From: a phage
Direction: 5' to 3' (one strand)
Length of the DNA: 64,000 nt
Assembly (NCBI GenBank): GCA_025829515.1
Contig: GCA_025829515.1_4865.1
Below are positions 1,370 through 50,176 of this stretch, one piece after another. Position numbers and translations under genes: made by a program. The notes under the pieces were generated by a model. That model was not told where the DNA came from. It was given only the letters and a program-made list of their open reading frames with translations, and searched no databases. Within the stretch, counting starts at the first letter, position 1. Each line of letters opens with the position of its first letter.

Positions 1370-1412
1370 TCATCTAGTATGACCCGTAAGTAACCTTAAG
1401 GAAAATATTGCA

Positions 1413-2252: not shown

Positions 2253-2304
2253 AGCCCTCTAAACGCACTCACAACCTTCTAAAGCCACTCTAACGGTAGA
2301 ACGA

Positions 2305-2356
2305 CCCTCTATAGTGATAAAAGCTCTCAAAACGCGTTTGAGAGCGTTATAGAGGG
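2305..2356. repeat. imperfect nested palindrome (structured element upstream of promoter-like motif)
   Basis: ccctctata...tatagaggg outer arms with inner gctctcaaaacg/cgtttgagagc arms; sits between terminator and promoter motif. Confidence 0.5.
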
Positions 2357-2376
2357 TGTACTCTGAATAAAAATAA

Positions 2377-2400
2377 TTTCAGATATATATTACCTAGGTG
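2377..2400 (+). promoter_or_regulatory. conserved promoter-like motif, copy 1 (TTTCAGATATATATTACCTAGGTG)
   Basis: One of three near-identical copies (also 30881, 49652), each after a terminator and before a conserved leader ending in AAGGAG-ATG; contains TATATTAC. Confidence 0.55.
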
Positions 2401-2452
2401 ATAGAAGACAATCTATCAACTCAATCGACTATTAATCTAAAGGAGTATTGCC

Positions 2453-10308: not shown

Positions 10309-11313
10309 ATGAACCGTTATGATTTAGACGTTCAGCCAACGCTAACCCAGCGGCCCATGCACCGTGGTGCCGTGTCGAAGACTATCACGTACGAAAATAA
10401 TACCGGGTTTCCCATTTACGTCACTGAACTCAGTGGCGGGCATTTTGTTTTAGCCCCGTCGTCCACCACAGCGGCGGAATTTGGGATTGTTATTTACGTG
10501 ACCTATACGGTGTTTGCGAACGGTGCTAACCTATCTGGTTTGCGCGACGCACATTCGCCAAAGCAGTATGCGCAGATATGTAAGGAATTAACTACGAACG
10601 GCGAAACAACGCTGATGTATGTAGTTGATGATATCGGTGCATTAATGCGAGGCGACTTGGTGGTGTTGAAGAAGCTAGGAATGGCTTTCTCTACCCAACC
10701 AGTAAAACTCGATTCTGAGGTTATTGGTAAGCCTGGAGGGGATCGTAAAGAATTTGCCTTGGGCGTGGTAGTTGTGCAGAAGTACGAAGACCCAGCACCT
10801 TTAAAGTGGCTGAGGTTCTATACAACGATGTTGGAAGTCGAACCGATTCGATCGAAGTATTACGACGAGGGTATTTACATGGTAATCGGTGGTGCGGAGT
10901 GTGTCGAAGGGGGTAAGATGATAATGTACGCTTTCGATGACCCGATGTCCCCGTTCCGGGCGTTTGCATCTGAAGATGAAGCGAGGCGTTATCGGTGGCT
11001 CGATAACATTCCAGAGTTGCGAGATGTTCGTGCGAAGCTGGAAGCCACGTATCAGGCCAAGTTGCAAGATCTCGATGAGAAAAAGAATCGGCAAGACCTC
11101 GATTATCGTACGCAACTTAATAATCTGGCGCTGGAGAAGGAGAGGATTAACACCCTTAACGCAATCCAGACGAATGAGCTTAAGTTGCGTTCCGATGTTC
11201 GTAAAGACCAATACGAGTCCCGAGCTTATCAGCGAAAAGATAGCTCGGAGTTCTTGAAATCCATTCCCGCGTATTTGGCTGCAGGGGTAGCACTCGTTGG
11301 GATGATTCTCTGA
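10309..11313 (+). CDS. hypothetical protein with C-terminal coiled coil and TM anchor (334 aa)
   Basis: In-frame ATG at 10309 (track start 10285 is TTG); C-terminal heptad-like region ending in hydrophobic AYLAAGVALVGMIL. Confidence 0.65.
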   Translation: MNRYDLDVQPTLTQRPMHRGAVSKTITYENNTGFPIYVTELSGGHFVLAPSSTTAAEFGIVIYVTYTVFANGANLSGLRDAHSPKQYAQICKELTTNGETTLMYVVDDIGALMRGDLVVLKKLGMAFSTQPVKLDSEVIGKPGGDRKEFALGVVVVQKYEDPAPLKWLRFYTTMLEVEPIRSKYYDEGIYMVIGGAECVEGGKMIMYAFDDPMSPFRAFASEDEARRYRWLDNIPELRDVRAKLEATYQAKLQDLDEKKNRQDLDYRTQLNNLALEKERINTLNAIQTNELKLRSDVRKDQYESRAYQRKDSSEFLKSIPAYLAAGVALVGMIL

Positions 11314-30836: not shown

Positions 30837-30880
30837 ACAGATCAGAACAGTCCTATGCTTTTTGCTTCCAGTCCACTAAA

Positions 30881-30908
30881 TTTCAGATATATATTACCTT
30901 AGTGAGAG
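30881..30908 (+). promoter_or_regulatory. conserved promoter-like motif, copy 2
   Basis: TTTCAGATATATATTACCTTAGTGAGAG; same downstream leader (aatcgactattaatctaaaggagtatt) as copy 1. Confidence 0.55.
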
Positions 30909-30955
30909 TTGTCGTTAAACTCTCTAATCGACTATTAATCTAAAGGAGTATTCTA

Positions 30956-41008: not shown

Positions 41009-41336
41009 AAAACGGAATTTGCCAAAGCTGGATATAACGGTTAAGTCGGGGCTGAAATATTTGGCACCCGACTGGGACTTTCTGATGGACTACAAGAAGT
41101 CTGACAAAGGCCCCGACGCAGAAGCTGCGTATACCAAACGCTACCTGCAGAAACTTAGTCGGTTGTTTGATGAAGACACTGATAAGTTGATAGAGATTCT
41201 CCGCCAGGGCGAGGTCGTACTAATGTGCTATTGCCCACCGGGGAAATTCTGTCATCGCCACTTGCTAGTTTCTTACCTTATTGAAATCGGTGAGTGGTTC
41301 GGTTATGAAGTAATTTACATGGGCGAATTATCGTAA
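40953..41336 (+). CDS. hypothetical protein with CYC-x6-CHRH motif, DUF488-like? (127 aa)
   Basis: Overlaps the 3' end of the PP-loop gene by 56 nt; motif VVLMCYCPPGKFCHRHLL. DUF488 attribution is from recollection and weak. Confidence 0.45.
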   Translation: MPKQVKLWTLQLAKWRIAEKRNLPKLDITVKSGLKYLAPDWDFLMDYKKSDKGPDAEAAYTKRYLQKLSRLFDEDTDKLIEILRQGEVVLMCYCPPGKFCHRHLLVSYLIEIGEWFGYEVIYMGELS

Positions 41337-41347
41337 GGAGAGTCCTC

Positions 41348-49651: not shown

Positions 49652-49680
49652 TTTTCAGATATATATTACTTAGGTGAGAG
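49652..49680 (+). promoter_or_regulatory. conserved promoter-like motif, copy 3
   Basis: TTTTCAGATATATATTACTTAGGTGAGAG; leader ctaatcgaccattatcttaaggag related to copies 1 and 2. Confidence 0.55.
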
Positions 49681-49729
49681 TTAACCATTAACTCTTATCT
49701 AATCGACCATTATCTTAAGGAGTTTTAAC

Positions 49730-50176
49730 ATGTACATTCTGAATAACGAACTTACTAAGTACGCTAGCAAAAACCCGATTATGATTTCTTTCCTAATCGT
49801 GATGGCGGCCAACAAACAAGACCCTAGCGAATTCACTACTGAGGACTTCGAAGAGATTATCGCTAACGCCAAAGAAGCCACGTTCCAGACCACAGAGCCT
49901 ACTCGCGACGAGTTCCCCCTAGGTGAAGCCGGCGATGTAATGTTTAACGACATGGTTGCTTCGTACTACATCAATAGACGTGGTATGGAAATCGAATACG
50001 ATGAACTTCCTACTAGCAGCTTTGCTGAAATGATTCGTGATTATCGTCGTCAAGTTGTCTCTGACGATATCGTAAAGAAATACATGGCACAAATCAGCCC
50101 ATTCAGTCTTGAATTCGAAAACCGCGCGGTTGCCTTAGCAACACATCGCCTGCGTTTAGAAAAAGAAGTACACTAA
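49730..50176 (+). CDS. hypothetical protein (148 aa)
   Basis: First gene after promoter cassette copy 3; AAGGAG upstream. Confidence 0.7.
   Translation: MYILNNELTKYASKNPIMISFLIVMAANKQDPSEFTTEDFEEIIANAKEATFQTTEPTRDEFPLGEAGDVMFNDMVASYYINRRGMEIEYDELPTSSFAEMIRDYRRQVVSDDIVKKYMAQISPFSLEFENRAVALATHRLRLEKEVH

Follow-up and report, generated by a model that had tools for sequence, protein, structure and literature searches.

A non-coding spacer at positions 2253-2376 of the analysed stretch of phage DNA (the window, 64,000 nt) contains one copy of a ~40-bp block of three head-to-tail repeat units at 2319-2358. This block is a conserved primary-sequence element without a conserved fold, and its carriers use polymerases and replication systems that are unrelated. 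The direct repeats, palindrome and hairpin of the spacer exceed chance; the hairpin itself is ordinary, and the block from which it is built is the interesting part. Comparison of syntenic regions shows that the 124-bp spacer once preceded an Nlig-Ia gene, and that the SPN3US lineage deleted the gene from this accessory slot but kept the DNA upstream of it. Our tentative reading of the block, held at slightly below even confidence, is a helically phased, double-stranded array for a putative DNA-binding protein.

Setting of the spacer

The window belongs to an SPN3US-like jumbo phage of Salmonella (Seoulvirus) with 98-99.5% identity to SPN3US, SEGD1, SPLA3 and ~30 others. The spacer has a late structural operon terminator on one side and a phiKZ-type early promoter on the other, the same borders that the earlier note had recognised as a terminator and promoter copy 1. 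Two late genes precede it, one for a virion structural protein and one for a homologue of SPN3US gp201 (1413-2210); they are followed on the plus strand by the intrinsic terminator of the operon at 2217-2251. This terminator has a GC-rich 10-bp stem, a 5-nt loop and the T-run tail CTCTTTATTTT, and it is conserved in all relatives. No ORF of at least 30 aa overlaps 2211-2452 on either strand, in agreement with the ~120 bp previously noted as free of ORFs, and the nearest minus-strand gene lies 2.6 kb off, past five plus-strand genes.

The right border of the spacer is the early promoter core TTTCAGATATATATTACCTAG (2377-2397, plus strand; virion RNA polymerase type), with further copies at 30881 and 49655. 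It is part of the motif TTTCAGATATATATTACyTAGGTGA, which together with a conserved leader runs from 2375 and recurs in the window at 30879 and 49653; CAGATATATATTAC has five exact copies in the genome, the spacer-side copy beginning at 2380. The motif from 2375 fits a phiKZ-type early promoter, a class assigned from a review in which the early promoters of phiKZ-like virion RNA polymerases are A+T-rich, ~10 nt long, centred on -10 and located upstream of early operons (PMC7598289). Nothing similar to this motif was found inside 2253-2376. The conserved early-operon leader (2398-2452, plus strand) then contains a hairpin, GATAGA...TCTATC (2400-2417), followed by AATCGACTATTAATCTAAAGGAG and the ATG at 2453. 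At the other two promoter copies in the window the gap between terminator and promoter is just 20-40 bp, and the extra ~124 bp is peculiar to 2253-2376.

A conserved three-unit block

The block (2319-2358, plus strand) was delimited from an nhmmer profile, ungapped alignments and its distribution across families. It comprises an A-rich lead (2319-2322), unit 1 GCTCTCAAAAC (2323-2333), unit 2 GCGTTTGAGA (2334-2343) and unit 3 GCGTTATAGAGGG (2344-2356). Across 17 spacers the consensus is ~40 nt long and ungapped, aAAA GCGCTTAGAAt GCGTTnnAGA GCGTTtTAGAGGg TAt, and resolves into three head-to-tail units of 10-11 bp (GCGCTTAGAAt, GCGTTnnAGA and GCGTTtTAGAGGG) followed by TAT. An 11 + 10 bp spacing of the units holds throughout 34 distinct instances, from which a consensus was also derived. 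At least seven jumbo-phage lineages have the block in common. Conservation in related phages, which had been proposed as a check, is found for the block: it is ungapped in all 17 syntenic regions, where the neighbouring protein is 47-58% identical and the rest of the spacer is unalignable.

With a profile built from 18 homologues, 2319-2357 is the sole strong nhmmer match in the window (E = 3.7e-9; next best 0.09). Units 2 and 3 match the consensus exactly, with GCGTT cores and an AGAGCGT junction as in the rest of the family. Unit 1 departs at three positions from the family form (G)CGCTTAGAA(T/C), reading GCTCTCAAAAC versus GCGCTTAGAAC; the three changes create complementarity to unit 2, and the window copy is a diverged member of the family. 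The location of this copy and of nearly all other instances is non-coding, the exception seen being the 3' end of mobQ on a 4-kb plasmid.

SPN3US carries a second full copy at ~137,550 (E = 2.4e-7), located after the gp108 stop codon and before a bidirectional terminator that faces gp107. At the ends of the SPN3US record, a 1.7-kb non-coding region holds single or paired block units together with a ~100-bp pure A+T palindrome, and Rfam scans of these end regions returned tRNAs only. The string GCGTTNNAGAG occurs six times in the 239 kb of SPN3US, always on the plus strand and in five of six cases within the intergenic 6% of the genome. A role for the block as a dispersed promoter was rejected, as it does not lie upstream of other genes in the window. 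The likely late-promoter word in this phage is TAGTATG. Intergenic enrichment of AGAGGGT and GAGAGGTA was also set aside as a signal, since it comes mostly from terminator stems.

Inverted units and a lineage-specific hairpin

The two imperfect direct repeats and the nested palindrome described in the earlier note are both present in the spacer. The repeats CCCTCTAAACGCACTC (2255-2270) and CCTTCTAAAGCCACTC (2275-2290) are identical at 13 of 16 positions and lie 20 bp apart. The palindrome (2304-2357) has outer arms ACCCTCTATA (2304-2313) and TATAGAGGGT (2348-2357), which are complementary at all 10 positions, and inner arms 2320-2331 and 2337-2348, which are complementary at 11 of 12 positions and enclose a 5-nt loop. 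Folded as DNA, the hairpin segment reaches -16.2 kcal/mol (z = -6.9), a value equalled by none of 200 shuffles, while RNA folding of the complete 124 nt yields z values of -2.9 (plus strand) and -2.7 (minus strand).

Three inverted, minus-strand copies of block unit 3 account for the left part of the spacer. Unit a is direct repeat 1 (2255-2270), whose reverse complement, GAGTGCGTTTAGAGGG, matches block unit 3 and which gives a weak minus-strand nhmmer match to positions 22-39 of the block model. Unit b is direct repeat 2 (2275-2290; reverse complement GAGTGGCTTTAGAAGG), 20 bp after unit a, and unit c is the left outer palindrome arm ACCCTCTATAGTG (2304-2316), 30 bp after unit b and reading ...CTATAGAGGGT on the complementary strand. 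The spacings of these extra units in the SPN3US lineage, 20 and 30 bp, are multiples of 10 bp. With up to one mismatch allowed, CCCTCTAWAS has 13 matches in the 64-kb window, four of them inside the 102 bp of 2255-2356. Since the direct repeats and palindrome consist of inverted unit copies plus the drift of unit 1, they represent inverted local duplications of a single repeated unit, together with drift. The same added units and drift suggest that the hairpin is a by-product of duplication and not a selected RNA fold.

The nested palindrome (2304-2357, strand unassigned), recognised by complementarity and folding, is specific to the SPN3US lineage. The long hairpin is confined to SPN3US-type genomes and is absent in ChrisDB, Caitlin, Asesino, Machina, Wellington, SPAsTU and others. 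Its perfect outer stem is strain-specific: at 2305-2314 the sequence of SPN3US, of a metagenomic relative and of SPFM2 is CCCTCTAAAG, which introduces a stem mismatch, and SPFM2 has an additional, uncompensated A-to-G change in the inner stem. RNAalifold applied to 17-20 homologous regions found neither conserved structure nor compensatory change on either strand (plus strand, four pairs, 0 compensatory changes, -2.7 kcal/mol; minus strand, two pairs, 0 compensatory changes). A scan of 2100-2600 against Rfam at E values up to 10 gave only noise: the lowest-E hit, MIR8562, scored 17.6 bits (E = 0.73) where the gathering score is 211, and none of the hits neared the gathering score of its own family.

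A repeatedly lost Nlig-Ia gene

Syntenic spacers, located via the gp201 homologue in 14 GenBank phages, four further IMG/VR contigs and 13 metagenome loci, occur in three states: the promoter directly after the terminator, an ORF present, or the ORF absent with its preceding sequence kept. The first state is that of the Derbicusviruses Phobos, CR5 and EarlPhillipIV, in which the terminator runs straight into the early promoter and the block is absent at the locus. SPAsTU/STsAS, pEa_SNUABM_29, pSal-SNUABM-04, pEa_SNUABM_4 and two metagenome contigs have a 134-136-aa ORF in the slot, with a match to Pfam Nlig-Ia (ligase N-terminal domain; E = 7e-27). This ORF begins 10-15 nt past the block, and in these gene-bearing phages block unit 3 (GGAGG or AGAGGG) supplies the Shine-Dalgarno sequence of the ribosome-binding site. 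All other syntenic spacers, including that of the window, lack the ORF and retain the sequence that precedes it.

In the window, the slot is represented by a deletion scar, TGTACTCTGAATAAAAATAA (2357-2376, plus strand), defined by comparing junctions with SPAsTU, SNUABM29, SNUABM4, ChrisDB, pSal04 and Machina. SNUABM4, for example, reads ...AGAGGGTATTACGC[ATG...]TTTGATTAAAAAAG versus ...AGAGGGTATTACAC-TGTAG-TTTGATTAAAAAAG in ChrisDB. ChrisDB, Machina and the window each show a precise ORF-sized deletion with a different scar, and because the scars differ, the Nlig-Ia gene was lost at least three times. The block was retained at each loss. It is intact in at least six lineages from which the gene has been lost, while the neighbouring spacer has diverged beyond alignment, which argues for selection on the sequence itself.

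The block beyond jumbo phages

Wider searches used SPN3US copy 2 and then a 41-nt consensus as queries. The first T5-like matches were weak (E 0.1-4); copy 2 and the consensus returned hundreds of full-length matches. Block matches were found in 968 phage records (846 covering at least 80% of the block), in 1525 plasmid records, mostly from Escherichia, Salmonella and Klebsiella, and in 1228 of 5426 complete E. coli genomes, at 1441 places on plasmids and 844 on chromosomes. BLAST of these 5426 genomes found no core-chromosome copies, the matches being on plasmids, integrated plasmids and islands. The exact pattern of 19 specified bases had 15 hits in IMG/VR and 11 in species-representative bacterial genomes (596 Gb; chance estimate ~4); the latter are scattered over phyla, near chance and uninformative except for one in Rahnella. 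T5-like phages, of Salmonella, Escherichia, Klebsiella and Vibrio, make up most of the phage carriers, with Felix O1-like, Vequintavirinae-like and other jumbo phages also represented. Across the non-coding DNA of these phage families and plasmids the block is 85-95% identical and mostly co-oriented with flanking genes, and almost none of the matches is annotated.

Individual copies lie in a variety of non-coding contexts. The copy in the T5-like left terminal repeat reads CGCGTTAGAATGCGTTACAGAGCGTTTTAGAGCTAT and directly follows a terminator, with a CTGTATAAATATACAG palindrome and TGTGGATAA boxes (LexA-box-like and DnaA-box-like sites) within 100 bp. In Felixounavirus Si3 the block runs antisense to its neighbours within non-coding DNA rich in repeats, and the Seunavirus copy reads GCGCTTAGAAAGCGTTTTAGAGCGTTTTAGAGGGTAT. 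A 24-kb R6K/IncX-type plasmid of E. coli ATCC 25922, which has five 22-bp iterons and two DnaA-type boxes, carries two co-oriented copies 300-500 bp beyond the iterons, both of them between the origin and a toxin-antitoxin promoter. An integrated R6K/IncX-type plasmid carries the block on an E. coli chromosome, and in two E. coli islands it borders 1.5-3 kb of non-coding DNA rich in iterons. On the 4-kb MobQ plasmid, the 3' end of mobQ reads through block-like sequence ~250 bp from rep iterons; the coding origin that this read-through might imply was rejected because the phage copies have TAG stops in the same frame.

We found no description of the block in the searchable literature by sequence string, where the matches were sgRNA primers and other unrelated text and where an older account in subscription journals is possible. 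Publications on the T5 injection stop, the Felix O1 genome, R6K Sfx, MOBQ4 and pIGMS31 do not describe it, and it is absent from Rfam.

Possible roles of the block

From the position of the block one may guess at a boundary or regulatory role: it stands between a late operon and an early promoter here, and beside origins or along the edges of large non-coding regions elsewhere. We propose that 2319-2358 is the functional core of the spacer and would act as double-stranded DNA. Because the GCGTT cores recur once per helical turn, they would share one face of the helix, where they could be read by a sequence-specific and probably oligomeric protein. Judging from position, such a putative binder might mark or regulate the boundary between the late and early operons. 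The SPN3US lineage has gained three inverted single units (at 2255, 2275 and 2305), which would reinforce the site at 20- and 30-bp steps, and its unit 1 has drifted toward complementarity with unit 2. Among the roles that the earlier note had put forward, a protein-binding site is the one that the evidence favours, and we infer binding from the conserved phased repeats and the inverted units.

Action at the level of DNA is suggested by the 11 + 10-bp phasing, the lack of a conserved fold, retention after gene loss and the presence of few, non-coding copies. It is also consistent with the unrelated polymerases of the carriers and with several copies at which sense transcription is unlikely, either after a terminator or antisense to neighbouring genes. 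Counting against a DNA array, no binder candidate was found, and no protein family is known to be common to all carriers. A host-factor reader would predict arrays on the core chromosome, and the BLAST result given above therefore weighs against one. SPN3US-type phages probably replicate within a protein shell closed to most host proteins, which makes a host DNA-binding reader harder to picture. Furthermore, three 10-bp units make a short array, and the high identity seen in unrelated elements may be due in part to recent horizontal transfer and not to constraint.

Co-orientation with genes and overlap with the Shine-Dalgarno sequence mean that an RNA role fits too. Once transcribed, the block might serve as an unstructured 5'-UTR or 3'-UTR signal for a cytoplasmic host RNA-binding factor, with the ribosome or S1, an RNase, or a chaperone as candidates; this would adjust how the neighbouring message is translated or how stable it is. 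We regard this as unlikely, though several observations are consistent with it: the block abuts the start codon in gene-bearing relatives, with unit 3 as the ribosome-binding site; in most contexts it points the same way as the ORF that follows; SPN3US copy 2, with a stop codon before it and a terminator after it, falls within a 3' UTR; GU|UUU within the block resembles the preference of RNase E; and a reader in the cytoplasm would solve the problem of access to the phage nucleus. However, strict 11 + 10-nt spacing has no obvious meaning in single-stranded RNA, and neither strand has a conserved structure. The window and T5-like copies directly follow strong terminators and have no recognisable promoter before the block, the Felix O1-like copy is antisense to its neighbours, and the IncX-type copies lie between an origin and a toxin-antitoxin promoter. 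A structured RNA is far harder to sustain. The earlier note had suggested a regulatory RNA structure, and the hairpin at 2304-2357 could be read as a small regulatory RNA, a riboswitch-like element or a minus-strand intrinsic terminator, given its strength (z = -6.9 as DNA and about -2.8 as RNA) and an inner stem (2345-2323) that is followed on the minus strand by TTTTATCACT and, with TTTTAT, passes a simple terminator scan. Yet folding on both strands, the check that had been proposed, gave a strong single-sequence fold and no conserved structure among homologues; lack of conservation in relatives had been named as grounds against the idea, and the hairpin is conserved in SPN3US-type genomes only. 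It shows no covariation on either strand, belongs to no Rfam family, has a mismatched outer stem in SPN3US itself and a further uncompensated change in SPFM2, and lacks a T-run on the plus strand. No minus-strand gene ends at the hairpin, the nearest being 2.6 kb away, and we consider any such role very improbable.

The suggestion of an origin-like element fared better in other genomes than in the window. The block could be an auxiliary origin component, such as a loading, priming, fork-pausing or topology site, and the spacer would then belong to a small set of sites near origins in the jumbo phage. Such a role would accord with the ~300-500 bp that separate the block from R6K/IncX-type iterons and DnaA boxes, with the ~250 bp to rep iterons on the 4-kb MobQ plasmid, with its position bordering iteron-rich DNA in E. 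coli islands and with the adjoining DnaA-box cluster of the T5-like terminal repeat (Davison preprint). In SPN3US, unit copies share the 1.7-kb non-coding region with the A+T palindrome; in the window, 2.6 kb separate the spacer from a DnaB-like helicase gene downstream. Nevertheless, we judge a replication role quite unlikely: the spacer in the window contains no iterons or DnaA-box matches and has no neighbouring initiator gene, and its sole A+T-rich stretch is the early promoter. The replication machineries of the carriers are unrelated, Derbicusvirus relatives do without the block at this locus, and the sister-phage gene lies between the block and the A+T-rich promoter, so that spacing to an unwinding element is not conserved. 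Alternatively, the block may be a patch of recombination homology for the swap or loss of accessory genes, or a functionless relic of the lost gene's leader. It does sit exactly at a gene presence/absence polymorphism that arose repeatedly, it is common to unrelated mobile elements that co-infect the same hosts, and it is rare in species-representative bacteria, with the 11 exact hits in 596 Gb being near chance. The deletions, however, lie downstream of the block and not between two copies, the block is intact in at least six gene-less lineages whose neighbouring spacer is unalignable, and a homology patch needs no phased-repeat architecture, all of which make this explanation distinctly improbable.

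More broadly, the block might be an undescribed cis-element of unrelated Enterobacterales and Vibrio mobile elements, a single signal read by one conserved factor. This broader proposition is possible but doubtful. Conceivable functions of such a signal are control over replication or topology, a decoy at the entry stage or against defences, and recruitment of a host protein; the SPN3US spacer would then be a locally amplified version of it. If this is true, the occurrence of one signal in the T5 first-step-transfer region, in R6K-type origins and in nucleus-forming jumbo phages would indicate that all of them depend on one factor, with uses in studies of host takeover, plasmid maintenance and defence evasion and as a handle for annotation. 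On its own the spacer is a minor curiosity, but it leads to a ~40-bp block found across carriers that have no replication or transcription machinery in common. The block also allows part of the "repeat regions" at T5-like termini, long unexplained, to be read in a concrete and testable way. Were it a recombination patch only, it would still mark sites of accessory-gene exchange.

Comparison with known systems

Several familiar sites were set aside for misfits in sequence or spacing: those of sigma-70/32/E/54, IHF, Fis, ArcA, OmpR, PhoP and MetJ, as well as the MotA box, the P1 C1 operator, the cold box and Tus/ter. Like a Rho-independent terminator, the spacer has a GC-containing stem-loop, with TTTTAT after the inner stem on the minus strand; unlike one, it has no U-tract on the plus strand, its hairpin lacks conservation, and there is no convergent transcription unit that would require it. 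The complementary strand of the block junctions, ACGCTCT(N2)AACGC, has a CGCTCT core and following AAC in common with the boxA antitermination signal (TGCTCTTTAACAA in rrn, CGCTCTTA in lambda nut). In contrast to boxA, this reading is mostly antisense to genes, is tandem and lacks a boxB, and it was rejected on account of its orientation. SPN3US-type jumbo phages also transcribe with their own polymerases, unlike boxA users.

Short conserved non-coding junctions of exchangeable accessory genes are known from the promoter-early stem-loops of T4-type phages and from lambdoid boundary sequences. The block resembles these in bordering a site of gene gain and loss between a terminator and an early promoter. 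It differs in that they consist of a promoter and stem-loop within one phage group, whereas the block has neither a promoter consensus nor a conserved stem-loop and crosses phage families and plasmids. With iterons of the R6K gamma origin type it shares direct non-coding repeats, and it lies within a few hundred bp of iterons on R6K/IncX and small Rep_3-type plasmids. Iterons, however, are ~20-22 bp long, Rep-specific and numerous, while the block units are 10-11 bp long, the same across unrelated replicons and also present in phages without a Rep-iteron system.

Parallels in architecture are tandem direct-repeat operators with oligomeric readers, such as OmpR/PhoB-family sites, the MraZ boxes (three pentamers with 5-nt spacers), the four 10-bp repeats of the TorR tor boxes and the lambda CII site, TTGC-N6-TTGC. 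Unlike these, the block matches none of the boxes in sequence, it has no known cognate protein, it resides on phages and plasmids and not at the promoters of a host regulon, and its orientation and distance from promoters vary. As in these operators, its head-to-tail units recur once per helical turn, each with a GCGTT core, a variable spacer and a conserved flank, and they lie close to promoters and gene starts. The 10-11-bp phasing that characterises tandem direct-repeat operators is found in all 34 instances of the block.

Copies of the block and its flanks

Besides the copy in the window, the conserved three-unit block recurs in full a second time in SPN3US, at about 137,545-137,634 (11046-11135 of the SPN3US piece L044), where it lies between the gp108 stop codon and a bidirectional terminator common to gp108 and the converging gp107. 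In many jumbo-phage copies, ATTTATCG or CGATAAAT is found about 25 bp 5' of the block, as at L002 1560-1590, L008 2376-2392 and L044 11015-11035. The high-affinity nucleation motif of H-NS is TCGATAAATT, and by eye we take the upstream words to resemble it.

The block also occurs in the left terminal repeat of the T5-like phage saus176N (L047 697-830, flanking sites included), where both a perfect LexA-box-like palindrome, TACTGTATAAATATACAGTA, and DnaA-box-like sites, TGTGGATAA, follow it within 100 bp. These sites are part of 'repeat region 3' of the T5-like terminal repeat, which Davison (preprint) proposed to be the injection-stop signal. A block-like sequence, ACGTCTCAGAATGCGTTACAGAGCGATTTAGAC, is present in a 4-kb Serratia MobQ plasmid (L080 395-440), where it forms part of the 3' end of mobQ as annotated; it reads CAG where the phage copies have TAG.

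A two-unit copy of the block, inverted, lies together with GCGTTTTAGAGGGGG in a stretch of some 1.7 kb that has no genes and spans the ends of the SPN3US record (L046 13584-14114 and L042 1-1185), outside the window. Within this region, a palindromic tract of pure A+T, about 100 bp long (L042 110-215), is flanked by G+C-rich repeats of the CGCGTGCG type. An Rfam scan of the region returned no match, and we regard it as a candidate origin or packaging region. In the window itself, the largest gene-free gap by a crude ORF call is 339 bp long (41009-41347).

Early promoter and a probable late promoter

The early-promoter motif, TTTCAGATATATATTACyTAGGTGA, and its leader occupy window positions 2375-2452, 30879-30955 and 49653-49730. 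At all three copies a short hairpin, whose sequence varies (GATAGA..TCTATC, GAGAGTT..AACTCTC), follows the motif on its 3' side, and the conserved leader AATCGACyATTAwCTwAAGGAG extends from there to the start codon. Genome-wide, the early-promoter word CAGATATATATTAC has five exact copies. In SPFM2 (L005 690-735), a 27-bp tandem duplication has doubled the early-promoter core, so that GATATATATTACCTAGGTGATAGAAGA is present twice, at the locus homologous to window 2382-2408.

A different word, TAGTATG, stands at window 1375-1381, upstream of the ORF at 1413-2210, a gp201 homologue in the late structural operon. It is enriched in intergenic sequence, and of the nine copies in the genome, six are placed 30-45 nt before the start codon of a structural or late-looking gene. 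TAGTATG resembles TATG, the core of the phiKZ late promoter, and probably serves as the late promoter in this group of phages.
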